Origin: an uncultured Bacilli bacterium
GTDB lineage: Bacteria; Bacillota_I; Bacilli_A; RFN20; CAG-631
NCBI GenBank assembly: GCA_947626825.1
Contig: CANQTM010000001.1
Coordinates: forward strand, 32,568-96,567
Reading direction: 5' to 3'
Length of the DNA stretch: 64,000 nt
Shown: positions 1 through 42,296 of the stretch, in pieces
Position numbering within the stretch: position 1 is the stretch's first letter
How the letters are laid out: every line of letters begins with the position of its first letter
Program-made: the position numbers and the translations under genes
The notes under the pieces: generated by a model
Told to the model about the DNA's origin: nothing
Databases searched by the model: none
The model's input: the letters and a program-made list of their open reading frames with translations, nothing else

Positions 1-1836
1 GGTCGTTTACCTGATATTGGAAACTTTTCTAATGATGAAAGTGTAAAAGGCTATAGATATTATCCAAAAGATGTATCTTCAATTGAAATGGCAAAATATT
101 TTGGCGCCGCTAATGCATTTAAAAAGTTATGTCCAGGCGTTCAAATTAATTTAGCTTTCTGTAACATTGCTGATTATCCTGGCGCTGTAAGACAATACAA
201 AGAAGGTAATGGTCATTTACCACATTTGATGTGGGGTACAGATCACTGCGTTCAAATGTTATCTTATGGTTATAACTATGATTTATCACATTATAGCGAT
301 AGTGCATATTATGATCAATATAATGACTATTTGATGACAAGATTTAATTATGGCGGATTCCAAGCTGCATTTCCAATTTCTTCAGAACCTTGGGGAATTT
401 TAACAAATGCTTCAGATTTAGTAAAATATAATCTTGTTTCATCAGTTCTTGATTCTGACACAAGTTTACCTTCATCAGATTATAAAAATTATGTAAGTGA
501 TTTTACATGGGAACGTTTTACTAATTCTATTACTCAAGCAACTGATATTGATAATCACCATGCTGGTATATCAAAAGTTGTTGAATGGTTTGTAGATTAT
601 TCATTACCTACAATTTATGAACAATTTATTAGAACAGGAACAGTTGATTTAACTTCTTCTGAAACGACAGAAAAAATTACAAGATTATTAACTTATGAAA
701 ATAATATTGCAACACAAAAACAAACAGTTTATAGATATGGATTAGTTGATGGTGGAGCGCCTCAAACAGGTAGCAATCCAGATACAGATACATATCCAAG
801 TGCTGCAGCTTGGAATGGTAGAGATAATTTTGTATTAGATAATTATTGTACATTCTGGGGAGAAGCTCCATGGGCAATTGGTACAGTTTCATCAAGAATT
901 AGTACAATTAATGAAGAAGCTGCAAATGGTGAAATTGATAGTGACACAGGCCAACCAATTTCTGAAATAACTGATAAATTTGATGTATTACCTTTTCCTA
1001 AATATGATTCAAGTAGTACTGCATATACAGGAATTGCTGTTGAAGGTATGACAGTTGGTAATCAATGTCCAATTGGAACAGAATGTACAGCAGAAAAACA
1101 ATTAGAAATGGATGTTGCAGCTTACTTTACAATGTTTATGGGTTTAGATCCTAGATCAATTGAATCAAGAAGTAATATTCATTACATATTTAATGGCGAA
1201 GATTATTATGGAGATGCTACATTCCCATTAAGTAAACATGGTTCTAGATTTGCATGGCAAATTGATGGTACTTTATCTGAAAATGATCCAGCAAGTGCTT
1301 ATGAAGATAACTGGCAATATCAAATGGCAAATTATTTTAAAGTATATAATGCATATGTAACAGATGGTAAAGAAGCAGATGTTGTAACATTTAGAAATAT
1401 TATGCCAGGTATTACAGCAGTTTTAGATAGTGTTTATGCAATTCCTGGAATTGGACTTGATGATTATGTTACTTGTTTAAATTATTATAATGAACCAGTT
1501 GACATTGCAGATGATACAGGTCAATCTACAACAGGTACAAGAGATATCTTTAATAAATGGCAAACTAGACATTCAGTATTTTCTGATATGGATGAGTTTG
1601 GTCAAAGAGCAGGTGGTATTTTAGGTACTGGACAATATGTATCAAAAGTTTTATCAAATCTTCAAGATTTAGAAACTGATATTAATACACACTCAATTGA
1701 AGCATGGGCTTATTTGGAAGAATGTGTTGATGCATATTATGGTGAAGGCTTATATAATATGGTTGAGAAAAATGATGATGGAACACTAACAGTTCTTAAC
1801 CAAAATAGAAATAGTTACCAAGGTTATAAAGAATAA
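1..1836 (+). CDS. Putative extracellular solute-binding-like lipoprotein, paralog A (5' end truncated by window start)
   Basis: Frame is open from nt 1. The first 29 codons (GRLPDIGNFSNDESVKGYRYYPKDVSSIE) align with residues ~100-130 of the downstream paralog. About 75% aa identity to the 2417..4438 product. The FxK..PGVxI...DY...V.Q motif resembles SBP family 1. Confidence 0.5.
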   Translation, partial: GRLPDIGNFSNDESVKGYRYYPKDVSSIEMAKYFGAANAFKKLCPGVQINLAFCNIADYPGAVRQYKEGNGHLPHLMWGTDHCVQMLSYGYNYDLSHYSDSAYYDQYNDYLMTRFNYGGFQAAFPISSEPWGILTNASDLVKYNLVSSVLDSDTSLPSSDYKNYVSDFTWERFTNSITQATDIDNHHAGISKVVEWFVDYSLPTIYEQFIRTGTVDLTSSETTEKITRLLTYENNIATQKQTVYRYGLVDGGAPQTGSNPDTDTYPSAAAWNGRDNFVLDNYCTFWGEAPWAIGTVSSRISTINEEAANGEIDSDTGQPISEITDKFDVLPFPKYDSSSTAYTGIAVEGMTVGNQCPIGTECTAEKQLEMDVAAYFTMFMGLDPRSIESRSNIHYIFNGEDYYGDATFPLSKHGSRFAWQIDGTLSENDPASAYEDNWQYQMANYFKVYNAYVTDGKEADVVTFRNIMPGITAVLDSVYAIPGIGLDDYVTCLNYYNEPVDIADDTGQSTTGTRDIFNKWQTRHSVFSDMDEFGQRAGGILGTGQYVSKVLSNLQDLETDINTHSIEAWAYLEECVDAYYGEGLYNMVEKNDDGTLTVLNQNRNSYQGYKE

Positions 1837-1851
1837 ATAGTAAATATTAAA

Positions 1852-1881
1852 AAGAAGGCATTCGATGTCTTCTTTTTTTTG
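1852..1881 (+). terminator. Rho-independent terminator after lipoprotein paralog A
   Basis: Hairpin gaaggcat-tcg-atgtcttc followed by a T8 run. Confidence 0.55.
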
Positions 1882-2416
1882 TTCTCATCGAAAACGTGGA
1901 ATTTGCGTGGGGCTTTCAAAAAAAACTCTTCAAAATCATGGTGCTTCAAAACAAAAGTGAGAATATAAAACTTACTTTTGTTTTTTTATCCAGATATTTT
2001 GAAAAATGTAATTTTTTAAATAGTAACTGCATTTATTAAAATACAAGTAAATTCAATATTTATTATATAAAACAGATAAAAAAAGGCAATTTATTAAATA
2101 TTTATAATTTTTTTGGACATAATATTTTTAATCAAAAATACAGTTGATTTTTATGCAAAATCAATTATTAAAAGCTATTCAAAAACGTGGGGTTTTTCAA
2201 CCCCACGTCATGAACAGCTTTTTTTGACTCCACAAAAAAATAAAGCCGAATTAGTAATGCTAAATGATTATTAATTTAAATTAAAATACAATTTTAACAA
2301 AGTTTTTAATTAGTAACTTTTTTCCATATTTATAAAGTTTTTTTCCATTGTTAGCATATTTTCTTAATGATATATTTAAAAAGAAGACGAATATTTACAT
2401 GGAGGTATTTTGCTTT

Positions 2417-4438
2417 ATGAAAAAAATATTAGCTTTAACATTATTTCCATTACTTACTATGACCATTGCTGGATGTGGAAATAAAACTAATACTGATTCT
2501 AATAATAGTGGAGATAGTAATTCGCCAGTGACAACATGGCCTGAGGAACAACAAGAAGATATTTATGGTGTTTTACCTGAAGAAGTAAAAAATGCCAATG
2601 TTTCAATTGATTTGCTTGTTTACATTGAAGGCCAACAAAAGCGTCTTCCTGATATTGGAAATTTTTCTAATGATCCTAGTAAACCAGGATATAGATATTA
2701 TCCAAAAGATGTTTCAGCTATCGAATTGTCAACATTATTTGGGGCTGCTAATGCATTTAAAAAGTTGTGTCCAGGTGTTCAAATAAATTTATCTTTTTGT
2801 AACATTGATGATTATCCTGGTGCTGTAAGACAATATAAAGAAGCTAATGGCCATTTGCCACAATTAATGTTAGGAACAGAACACGTTGTACAAATGCTTG
2901 CACAAGGATATTGCTATGATTTATCACGTTATAGTGATAGTGCATATTATGAACAATATAACGATTATTTTATTTCAAGATTTAATTATGGTGGTTTTCA
3001 AGCAGCTTTTCCTGTATCAGCAAGTCCATGGGGAATTTTAACAAATGCAACAAGTTTAGAAGATTATAATATTATTTCATCAGTTATTGATCCAAATACA
3101 AATTTACCTTCTCAAGAATATAAAAATTATATAAATGATTTTACATGGGAACGTTTTGCAAAGACAGTTAAGGATACTAACGATAGAATAAATGATTACC
3201 ATGCTGGCATATCTAAACCAGTAGAATGGTTTGTTGATTATTCATTACCATCAATTTATGATCAATTCATAAGTACAGGTACTGTTGATTTTACATCAGA
3301 AGAAGCATTGGCAAAAATCACTAGATTATTGGAATATGAAAATGAAATTGCAAATAATGCTGTTTATAAATATGGTATTGATCCATCAAGTAATATAGTT
3401 TACACAGGAAATGAAGCATATTTTAATGGTGCTGCAGGTTGGAATGGTAAAGATAATTTTGTTGTAGATCAATATTGCACATTTTGGGGTGAAGCACCAT
3501 GGTCAATTGGTGTTGTTTCTTCAAGAGTACAAACTCTTAATGAAGAATATAATGAAGGAAAAACGACACAAGAAATTACAGAAAAATTTGATGTGCTTCC
3601 TTTTCCAAAATTTGATTCAAACAGCACAGCATATACAGGAATTGCAATTGATGGATATACAATTGGAAACCAATGTCCAATAGGCACTGAATGTACTGCA
3701 CAAAAACAATTAGAAATGGATGTTGCTGCATATTTTACAATGTTTCTTACTTTAGATCCTAGAGCAATTGAATCAAGAGCAAATATTCATTATATATTTA
3801 ATGATGAAGATTATTATGGTGAAGCCTCATTCCCATTATGTAAACAAGGATCTAGATTTGAATGGCAAGATAATCCAGAAGTTTCAAAAGATGATCCAGC
3901 AAAAGATTATGCAGATAATTGGCAATATAACATGGCTAACTATTTGAAAGTATACAATACATATATAACAAATGATGAGGAACCTGATGTTGTAACATTT
4001 AGAAATATTATGCCTGGTTTAACAGCACTTTTAGATAGTGTTTATGCAATAAATGGTATAGGTGATGATTATATCACATGTCTAAATTATTATAATGAAC
4101 CAGTAGATATTGCTGACGAAACAGGACAATCATCAACAGGCACAAGAGATATTTTCAAAAGATGGCAAGAAAGATATACTACTTTTGCTGATAAAGGGCC
4201 TGATGGTCAACCATCAACAGGAGTTTTAGGCACTAGTCAATATGTATCAAATGTTTTAGCTAATCTTGAAGATTTAGAAAATGATATAAATAAAAATTCA
4301 ATTGAAGCTTGGGCATATTTACAAGAATGCGTTGATGCATATTATGGAGAAGGTAATTACAAAATTATTGGAAAAGATTCCGATGGTAAAATTGTTGTCT
4401 TAAATGAGGCAAGAAATAATTATAAAGGACATAGATAA
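2417..4438 (+). CDS. Putative solute-binding-like lipoprotein, paralog B
   Basis: GGAGGT RBS lies 8 nt before the ATG at 2417. Signal peptide with lipobox LLTMTIAGC. Full-length paralog of 1..1836. Confidence 0.55.
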   Translation: MKKILALTLFPLLTMTIAGCGNKTNTDSNNSGDSNSPVTTWPEEQQEDIYGVLPEEVKNANVSIDLLVYIEGQQKRLPDIGNFSNDPSKPGYRYYPKDVSAIELSTLFGAANAFKKLCPGVQINLSFCNIDDYPGAVRQYKEANGHLPQLMLGTEHVVQMLAQGYCYDLSRYSDSAYYEQYNDYFISRFNYGGFQAAFPVSASPWGILTNATSLEDYNIISSVIDPNTNLPSQEYKNYINDFTWERFAKTVKDTNDRINDYHAGISKPVEWFVDYSLPSIYDQFISTGTVDFTSEEALAKITRLLEYENEIANNAVYKYGIDPSSNIVYTGNEAYFNGAAGWNGKDNFVVDQYCTFWGEAPWSIGVVSSRVQTLNEEYNEGKTTQEITEKFDVLPFPKFDSNSTAYTGIAIDGYTIGNQCPIGTECTAQKQLEMDVAAYFTMFLTLDPRAIESRANIHYIFNDEDYYGEASFPLCKQGSRFEWQDNPEVSKDDPAKDYADNWQYNMANYLKVYNTYITNDEEPDVVTFRNIMPGLTALLDSVYAINGIGDDYITCLNYYNEPVDIADETGQSSTGTRDIFKRWQERYTTFADKGPDGQPSTGVLGTSQYVSNVLANLEDLENDINKNSIEAWAYLQECVDAYYGEGNYKIIGKDSDGKIVVLNEARNNYKGHR

Positions 4439-40761: not shown

Positions 40762-41076
40762 AAATATTTTTCTCCTTTTGTAGATATATTTTTTGAAAAA
40801 AGGCAATAATAAAAATAAGTCATCTTTCGCGTTTATGCTTAAAATGGTTATTAAATATCTACGAAATGATTATATTACTTATTAATTTGTAATTTCAAGA
40901 AAAATTTTTTAAAAAAGTATTGCATATTTGATAAATTATGTAATATAATATATATTTTTGTAAAAAAATAAAAAAATATGTCGAAAATCACTAATTTTTT
41001 ATTTGAATCACAAATTATCAATAAAAATAAAAAAAGAATTTGTAATTTTTTAAAGAAGGATACATTTTTAAATCTT

Positions 41077-41202
41077 TGGACATTTAAATATTTAACTAAT
41101 TTCCTTTTTGTGCTATATTGTGTATAGGTAGTTAAATAAAAAACCATAGTAAAAATTCAATAGTAATTTCCGTTTGTCAAACTAAATTGCTACTGCTAAA
41201 TG
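41077..41202. repeat. Direct repeat copy 1 (~126 bp, ~97% identical to 42172..42296)
   Basis: The string tggacatttaaatatttaactaatttcctttttgtgctatattgtgtat(a/g)ggtagttaaataaaaaaccatagtaaaaattcaatagtaatttccgtttgtcaaactaaattgctac is present twice. Contains an extended -10-like TGCTATATT. Confidence 0.85.
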
Positions 41203-41298
41203 TATATTTGTTGATGAGGTTTCCTATCTTTATTGATTTTCACAATATTTAGAAAAGAATTCTAAAAATAAATTAAGAAAATATAACAAAATAAAATG

Positions 41299-41335
41299 CT
41301 GAACCTTTAAAATTTGTTCAGCAATTTTTTTTTAA
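41299..41335. terminator. Hairpin plus T run (bidirectional terminator candidate)
   Basis: gctgaac-ctttaaaattt-gttcagc followed by T9. Confidence 0.5.
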
Positions 41336-41365: not shown

Positions 41366-41826
41366 TTATTTTTTTTCGTTCCAAATTCTTCTTGATTCAT
41401 TTAATGATATACTATTAGCTCCACCATCGCTATCAGGATATGTTTCTCCATATGTTTCATTTTCCCACCCGCATATTGGACAAATGTCATAATCATCAAC
41501 ATCTTTAAAAGTATATTTACCACATACTGGGCATTTATGTTTTATTGGCTTTGGGGCAATTGATGATAAATAATTATAATTTTTGTTTTTCTTTCTTAAT
41601 TTTAAAAAATTATTTCTTAATTCTTCTATATCATGGCCTTCTGAATCTTTAGCTTTTGGATTTTCTAGTTGCTCAAGATTATATTTCCAACCACAAATAT
41701 AACAAAAGCGATCTAATCCATCTTCCCCCCTCATTAATTAGAATTTTGGTTAATTTGGGAAAATAAAATTCGTTGCACACAGGGCATTTAGTTGGTCTAT
41801 ATTTTTTTTCCTTCATGTTATTTTTC
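41366..41826 (-). pseudogene. Tandem CPCC-family cysteine-rich zinc-ribbon protein, frame broken at a G6 (C6 on + strand) homopolymer
   Basis: ATG at 41826 (MKEKKYRPTKCPVCNEFYFPK...) continues into the annotated 41366..41734 frame only if the G-run at 41725-41730 is one base shorter. The C-terminal CPVCGKYTF..YDICPICGWE..GGANSISL matches the CPCC domain. Confidence 0.5.
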
Positions 41827-42171
41827 CTTTCTTTTCTTTTGATTTAAATAGTACTTATATTCATCCTGAGGACAAAAACAAGTAATTACAATTCCATTTT
41901 TACTGATAATTGCAAATTCATTAGTCTTTATATTGTATTTAAAAGTAGATCCTTTTTTATCAACAAACAAGTTTTCTGTTTAAGTTTTCCTTATTTATTT
42001 TTAAATTTTTAGAGGAATAAAAAGTAATACTAACTTATTAAATAAAGTAATTCTATAAAATAGTATGTAATATTATTTTTATATAGTATTTTTGTTCAAT
42101 TCCTTTTCTATAATGATTTATAACAAATTATCATAATATTGTAAACACATAAAATTTATTTTTTAAATTTC

Positions 42172-42296
42172 TGGACATTTAAATATTTAACTAATTTCCT
42201 TTTTGTGCTATATTGTGTATGGGTAGTTAAATAAAAAACCATAGTAAAAATTCAATAGTAATTTCCGTTTGTCAAACTAAATTGCTACCGTTAATG
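42172..42296. repeat. Direct repeat copy 2
   Basis: See copy 1. Similarity continues at lower identity for ~35 bp beyond both ends. Confidence 0.85.

Follow-up and report, generated by a model that had tools for sequence, protein, structure and literature searches.

Genes and features at the locus

The window, by which is meant the whole 64-kb stretch of DNA that was analysed, contains between two sets of housekeeping genes a short segment of damaged genes on the minus strand (Table 1). On one side lie genes for TldD/PmbA, PTS EIIB, a GDSL lipase and a Wzz-kinase, and on the other those for NagA, an exonuclease and Alr. The long ORFs of the window are intact under translation table 11, the standard genetic code, which made a reading in the Mollicutes code 4 unneeded. 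A search of the whole window with Rfam at the gathering threshold returned a single tRNA, and nothing in the damaged cassette or in the repeat that brackets it. A scan found promoter-like sites to be no commoner than in shuffled sequence.

At the center of the segment is a gene with two CPCC zinc-ribbon units that is split by a frameshift. Its start codon is the ATG at 41816-41814 of the minus strand, preceded at 8 nt by an AAGGA ribosome-binding site; the earlier note had placed this ATG at 41826. From here the frame encodes MKEKKYRPTKCPVCNEFYFPKLTKILINEG, enters the run of six G residues, which had been located correctly at 41725-41730 as the reverse complement of cccccc, and stops after 45 codons at 41679, which is 15 codons after ...INEG rather than the 13 counted previously. 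The 122-aa ORF reported by the gene caller lies in the other frame and begins MRGEDGLDRFCYICGWKY; on inspection of the sequence there is no Shine-Dalgarno sequence before its ATG at 41734. As had been proposed, this ORF carries the second part of the CPCC unit that begins in the 45-codon fragment, and the loss of one G fuses the two halves. With G5 there is one ORF of 149 aa and with G8 one of 150 aa, while G6 and G7 are out of frame. The hairpin found by reading the sequence 3' of the gene was missed by an automated scan, its 11-nt loop exceeding the 8-nt limit of that scan. The G6 tract is the only G/C run of six or more in the window, which is 25.8% GC and in which about 1.1 such runs are expected under a first-order Markov model. 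Its occurrence is statistically ordinary, and the window is not enriched in G/C runs.

Table 1. Features of the decayed locus, with positions numbered along the window
Feature	Position	Strand	Remarks
Direct repeat copy A, 135 nt	41065..41199		96% identical to copy B
Terminator-like hairpin	41288..41322	-	GCTGAAC / 11-nt loop / GTTCAGC, then T-rich tail; 3' of the CPCC gene; from reading of the sequence
Tandem-CPCC gene, putative immunity gene	41366..41816	-	149 codons with G5; split by +1 G frameshift
122-aa ORF, gene-caller version	41366..41734	-	Second CxxC of unit 1 and the complete C-terminal CPCC unit; product P0001
A8 run at the end of the CPCC gene	41369..41376	-	A7 in strain L010
45-codon N-terminal fragment ORF	41679..41816	-	First CPVC pair kept, out of frame thereafter
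G6 homopolymer (C6 on the + strand)	41725..41730	-	Frameshift site; the in-frame, putatively ancestral G5 reads GAG GGG GAA (E-G-E)
3' stump of predicted toxin gene, last 50 codons	41818..41970	-	Family of ~125-aa colicin-D/CdiA-CT-like proteins; N-terminal ~75 residues, with conserved H41/H45, missing
3'-end remnant of a further cassette gene	42033..42092	-	Like the 135-aa L099 gene that precedes DUF4417; would mark the upstream edge of a ~1.1-kb deletion
Direct repeat copy B, 135 nt	42160..42294		Spacing of 1095 nt from copy A

The CPCC units

The fused protein matches the Pfam family PF14206 (Cys_rich_CPCC) in two stretches, with 70.4 bits and an E-value of 1e-19, and the 122-aa ORF matches it at 70.1 bits, both against a gathering score of 24.5 bits. 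When the units are scanned separately, the C-terminal one reaches 59.1 bits. The N-terminal one, at 21.2 bits, falls below the 24.5-bit cut-off, yet it aligns to the same span of the profile, 2-54; the 45-codon fragment by itself has no Pfam match. The four-cysteine zinc-ribbon motif of the C-terminal unit consists of C95-P-V-C98 and C112-P-I-C115-G-W, and that of the N-terminal unit of C11-P-V-C14 and C38-Y-I-C41-G-W, which are linked only in the fused frame. The zinc-ribbon cysteines are invariant or nearly so among 19-21 homologs, as are C11, P12 and C14 of the first CPxC pair in all two-unit orthologs.

Other arrangements of the unit occur among relatives. Three CPCC units, with six CxxC pairs, are present in ORFs of about 240-250 aa at six loci (L046, L049, L058, L067, L077, L078), and a 388-aa ORF (L055, 3968-5134) has a toxin-like segment flanked on both sides by CPCC units. 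The number of units is variable within the family.

Homology to a solved toxin-immunity pair

A profile of the tandem-CPCC proteins matches two PDB chains, 8ey4_I and 8ey3_A, with E about 1e-14, both of which are named "Cys_rich_CPCC domain-containing protein". Entry 8EY4 is the CdiA-CT/CdiI toxin-immunity complex of E. coli O32:H37, and 8EY3 is its immunity protein alone. The CPCC gene of the window thus has homology in sequence and in fold to a solved CdiI-type immunity protein (8EY3; 8EY4 chain I), and it is encoded immediately 3' of its cognate toxin gene, the stump of which ends 1 nt before the ATG. Because the pair is homologous to the structurally solved 8EY4 pair, the window gene is best regarded as the putative immunity partner, and the CPCC protein would by inference bind and neutralise the toxin. 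Searches of the literature for PF14206/CPCC, for CPCC with immunity and for 8EY4/8EY3 returned nothing relevant. Through 8EY4, an uncharacterised Pfam family, PF14206, can be tied to a probable role in immunity.

The toxin gene survives in the small ORF upstream, which the earlier note had left unidentified and which homology to a ~125-aa family now identifies as a 3' stump. It had been described as overlapping the start codon in the string TAACATG; the two genes do adjoin there, as TAA-C-ATG, with a gap of 1 nt in place of the overlap. This 50-aa ORF (FVDKKGSTFKYNIKTNEFAIISKNGIVITCFCPQDEYKYY...) recurs directly 5' of the tandem-CPCC gene in about 50 of the 79 genome loci, and its 50 residues are the C-terminal end of a protein of about 125 aa that starts M-[AS]-T-K-G-x-S-N-R-Y-G-N. 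The family consists of free-standing proteins of 120-130 aa, of which about 480 members were detected. It has no model in Pfam or in NCBIfam, both of which were searched, and two of its members have been named "pyocin large subunit-like protein" by JGI. An AlphaFold model of the toxin (pLDDT 80.5) is made up of two helices, four strands and one helix, and among its structural matches are BrnT and a number of other CdiA-CT toxins. By sequence profile alone, 8ey4_A is found with an E-value of 6e-4, the H-x-x-x-H-G motif being aligned. The toxin has homology to the CdiA-CT from E. coli O32:H37, and is predicted to be of RNase type and to have the BECR/colicin-D fold. On these grounds we infer toxin and immunity activities for the Firmicute family, and a group of ~125-aa proteins without a name can be tied to a CdiA-CT/colicin-D-like toxin role.

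The ~75 N-terminal toxin residues that are missing from the window carry the invariant W29, H45, Y57, F64 and N66 and the nearly invariant H41. Only residues ~76-125 are present, and no upstream frame in the window is similar to the first ~75. There is a stop codon three codons before FVDKK of the stump. A nearly invariant tyrosine of the stump is cysteine in the window and tyrosine in four sister contigs, a change consistent with relaxed constraint. Toxin stumps truncated at the 5' end start near the same residue (~76-83, where the beta-sheet begins) in several unrelated loci, namely L011, L036, L039, L043, L054 and L069 and, at 41967, the window; some of them have a start codon of their own. 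The shared starting point may be an artefact of detection, the C-terminal 50 aa being the best conserved, or it may be a recurrent breakpoint.

The cassette in related bacteria

In many relatives the two genes are the last of a full cassette, in which an XRE-HTH gene is followed by genes for an HExxH protein of about 175 aa, a DUF4417 protein, the toxin and the CPCC protein. These encode an XRE-HTH protein of 119 aa, an HExxH protein of ~175 aa, a DUF4417 protein of 225 aa, a toxin of ~125 aa and a tandem-CPCC protein of 150-165 aa. The five genes, overlapping or abutting, are found in Allobaculum stercoricanis (L090, 4294-6874) and in L027, L038, L040, L044, L051, L076 and L085, among others, and the conserved arrangement is widespread among metagenome-assembled genomes of gut Bacillota. 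The HExxH protein has no Pfam match and DUF4417 no sequence relative in the PDB. PADLOC returned nothing meaningful for any cassette protein, and the five-gene arrangement was found neither there nor in the literature searched.

Incomplete forms are common among the 79 genome loci. DUF4417 is upstream in 46. About 38 loci have an intact toxin gene just upstream of the CPCC gene, overlapping or abutting it (L090 and L099 are examples), about 10 have toxin genes that are 5'-truncated or frameshifted (including L011, L036, L043 and L082), and in about 21 the CPCC gene is alone. Of two such lone genes, one adjoins serine recombinases (L096) and the other lies upstream of a methyltransferase-like gene (L100). 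The genome contigs that were scanned include none from the window's own species; the closest relative among them, a metagenome-assembled genome (MAG) of Anaeroplasma sp. (L014), retains only a C-terminal CPCC stump that lacks a start. In this survey, decay is typical of the toxin-CPCC module.

Two further arrangements deserve mention. At L099 (1-10020) the intact toxin-CPCC pair lies amid defence-type genes, Eco57I-like, T5orf172/MUG113 and AAA_21 with RloB, and its DUF4417 gene is itself truncated (133 aa). L021 (798-3128) and L031 (1930-4790) have two or three tandem copies of toxin-family genes alternating with other genes, and these look like polymorphic toxin-immunity arrays.

In many gut Bacillota and some phages the toxin and CPCC genes are carried as a pair that usually stands behind DUF4417, and the cassette is worth a separate study. 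The two may serve as effectors in a system of the order XRE - HExxH - DUF4417 - toxin - CPCC, undescribed so far and widespread among gut Firmicutes, of which the window may hold a fossil.

Remnants and repeats in the window

L099 is the locus of P0005, an ortholog of the CPCC protein with 70% identity. Its gene upstream of DUF4417, which matches phrog_5978, is recognizable in the window at 42033-42092, with 72% identity over 88 nt by blastn (E 3e-10) and by tblastn as KILYKNN--ITYYFIELLYLIS. There are no DUF4417, XRE or HExxH genes in the window. Compared with an ancestor like L099, the window lacks about 1.1 kb that comprises DUF4417 and the 5' portion of the toxin gene.

The remnant is bracketed exactly by the 135-nt direct repeat, of which there are only two copies in the window, with weaker similarity to it at 41234 and 42323. 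The repeat has no Rfam match and is absent from L099, and its RNA fold is not better than that of shuffled sequences (z -1.5). The JGI metagenomes contained no matches to the core of the repeat and no empty site. It could be the mark of a single-crossover insertion, or else a leader or promoter of the Wzz-kinase operon that was duplicated. The short ORFs that it contains (MVFYLTT[YH]TQYSTKRKLVKYLNVQ) are likely to be spurious.

G6 and G5 alleles among strains

Nine metagenome contigs (L001-L009) from separate ENA and Logan samples encode exactly the 122-aa product (P0001). Over the CPCC gene all nine match the window with 100% identity and have G6, three of them at 15-17x coverage, although they may all represent one circulating clone, which weakens them as independent replicates of tract stability. 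Clustering at 90% identity adds one member to P0001, a 151-aa protein (P0028) on contig L010. This contig is 98.5% identical to the window and has G5 and an uninterrupted gene of 151 aa, but its coverage is only 1.6x and two of its differences are homopolymer lengths. Compared to the window, the L010 gene has three synonymous changes in cysteine codons and no non-synonymous substitutions; at its 3' end A7 in place of A8 moves the stop codon, so that the tail reads NEKNKK rather than NEKK before the stop, a gain of two residues. There are further SNPs downstream of the gene. Because of the three synonymous changes and the other SNPs, L010 is a truly separate lineage and not a corrected copy of the window.

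At the level of consensus sequences, tract length therefore sorts perfectly by haplotype: all 10 window-type sequences have G6, and the sole G5 is on the L010 haplotype. The exact products that G5 or G8 would give on the window background are absent from ~15 billion proteins, and scans of JGI metagenomes for tract alleles from G4 to G8 gave zero matches. Orthologs with 56-76% identity are single ORFs of 142-149 aa, to which the G5 repair aligns without gaps. At the position of the tract their codons are GAA GGA ATA, GAT GGT GAT or GAT GGC GAT, with no homopolymer. The tract in the window is a lineage-specific accident arising from the codons GAG GGG GAA, and the distribution of alleles fits a single G5 to G6 slippage event that was fixed in a clone. 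The earlier note had proposed that uniform G6 in the reads together with separate short ORFs in the orthologs would favour a pseudogene over both sequencing error and phase variation; the outcome was mixed, as the orthologs proved to have one uninterrupted ORF, and a sister strain has the G5 allele. The frameshift is genuine and has become fixed in one clone, and the sister strain represented by L010 has an intact G5 allele.

Weighing the explanations

Three explanations of the interruption had been offered: a sequencing error, a decaying pseudogene and a slipped-strand, phase-variable switch. An error of sequencing or assembly, the true sequence being G5, comes readily to mind, since homopolymers are error-prone and the L010 contig does show G5. 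It is rejected because G6 was found in nine independent contigs, at up to ~17x; these assemblies, additional to the window, come from different runs, and L010 is a distinct haplotype. We give this explanation next to no credence. Reversible switching between G5 (ON) and G6 (OFF), which would leave a population mixed for immunity, draws on the existence of both alleles among strains at least 98.5% identical, on the position of the tract inside an ORF, where a change of one unit switches the frame, and on its being the longest G/C run in the window. The alleles are nevertheless divided by haplotype, the only G5 being accompanied by three synonymous and other SNPs, and neither a G5 nor a G8 product on the window background has been recorded. 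Contingency loci of poly-G or poly-C typically have tracts of 7-8 or more, and six G residues fall below this. The orthologs lack a tract here, the window has no excess of G/C runs, and there would be little left to regulate because the partner toxin has already been deleted. The switch is accordingly unsupported and we consider it very improbable. If it were true, a gut Mollicutes-like bacterium would be stochastically toggling an orphan immunity gene, with varying protection against colicin-D/CdiA-CT-like RNase toxins from phages or neighbours.

It is somewhat less improbable, though still unlikely, that the gene is functional, either through the 122-aa ORF as an immunity protein with a single domain or through a +1 ribosomal slip at GGG_G that restores the 149-aa product. 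Proteins of 60-70 aa with one CPCC unit occur naturally in 8EY4 and in phage FP_Brigit, the C-terminal unit here is undamaged and scores 59 bits, and no additional lesions have accumulated. For a slip, the tRNA-Gly on GGG would re-pair perfectly with the overlapping GGG and bring GAA into the A site; there is, however, no known +1 stimulator, and the 0-frame A-site codon, GGA, is presumably common in an AT-rich genome. Initiation at ATG 41734 is made doubtful by the lack of a Shine-Dalgarno sequence, and since the stop of the upstream ORF is in addition 50 nt downstream of this ATG, translational coupling is unlikely. Moreover, unit 1, which is broken in the window, appears to matter because two-unit orthologs all conserve the first CPxC pair. 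Residual function and decay are not mutually exclusive, and the former is compatible with the latter.

The explanation that we consider probable is that an immunity gene persisted as an orphan after the loss of its toxin and that a +1 G slippage has recently disrupted it, so that it is a pseudogene in the making. This agrees with the pseudogene proposed earlier, which is supported by the fixation of G6 in one clone and by the 5' deletion of the toxin gene.

A probable history of decay

The homologies and the gene order hold; the order of events given here and the loss of function are probable. A mobile toxin-immunity cassette would have landed between the Wzz/tyrosine kinase gene and nagA, and the segment from 41366 to 42092 would be its decayed tail. 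Where relatives have the pair intact, the gene for the predicted ~125-aa RNase-type toxin precedes a tandem-CPCC zinc-ribbon gene that overlaps or abuts it. In the window's lineage a deletion of about 1.1 kb would have taken DUF4417 together with ~75 codons from the 5' end of the toxin gene, leaving an orphan immunity gene that retained its ribosome-binding site and terminator. In a second and more recent event, replication slippage would have turned a chance G5 (GAG GGG GAA) into G6 and split the immunity gene. The inactivation is either very recent or incomplete, since the CPCC gene has no second lesion and its ribosome-binding site and terminator are still in place. What the 122-aa ORF retains in full is the C-terminal unit, to which the 70-aa functional CdiI is homologous.

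The locus itself is a case of ordinary gene decay, and what is gained is useful annotation, namely CPCC as a putative immunity protein and a toxin family that had no name. Annotations should mark the 122-aa "hypothetical CPCC protein" as a probable frameshifted immunity pseudogene, and the 50-aa ORF as a toxin-gene stump.

Comparison with known systems

Contingency loci of Campylobacter, Neisseria, Haemophilus and Mycoplasma resemble the CPCC gene in that a run inside a gene toggles the frame by a change of one unit and two lengths are found among close strains. The intragenic, frame-switching repeat is present here, but the tract of 5-6 units is short, it is not maintained in orthologs, and at the consensus level there is no variation within a haplotype. 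In addition, the locus has no surface or restriction-modification function.

The polymorphic toxins of MuF phages were also considered (Jamet et al., 2017; PMC5576092), in a paper that does not mention CPCC or colicin D. In Streptococcus phage Javan336 the last ~100 residues of a Phage_Mu_F protein (PF04233, 4e-19) are made up of the toxin domain, which is also similar to the C-terminus of phrog_15528 "portal" proteins. Phage genes of this kind are followed by CPCC genes with a single unit, and in FP_Brigit CPCC genes come after the portal genes. Neither the window nor the Firmicute cassettes are MuF loci, and near the window locus there is no MuF, portal or other delivery domain. In Javan336 (L094) the gene that follows the MuF gene (1792-3345) encodes, in place of a CPCC protein, a 59-aa ribbon-helix-helix protein (3638-3817); in that phage the toxin fold may have a different type of immunity protein or antitoxin as its partner.

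In its action the locus may be likened to CdiA-CT/CdiI or to the colicin D/ImmD pair, the homology being to a toxin-immunity pair only. The CdiA-CT/CdiI pair of E. coli O32:H37 (8EY4) has one CPCC unit, whereas there are two in tandem here. CdiA-CT is the C-terminal tip of a large CdiA protein with a VENN motif, in contrast to the free-standing toxin of ~125 aa, which has no CdiB. The former is from E. coli, while the hosts here are low-GC gut Bacillota or Mollicutes-like bacteria, and in the window both genes are damaged. The locus is not a contact-dependent (CdiBAI) system, as there is no CdiA body, VENN motif or CdiB, and its neighbours are housekeeping genes. Colicin D, a tRNase, and ImmD (1TFK, 5ZNM) belong with the RNase toxins of BECR fold, but sequence similarity is low and ImmD is not a CPCC zinc ribbon. 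Orphan modules, such as orphan cdiA-CT/cdiI and Rhs orphans, share with the window the order of a 5'-truncated toxin fragment followed by an immunity gene, and the difference is that in the window the immunity gene appears to be decaying too.
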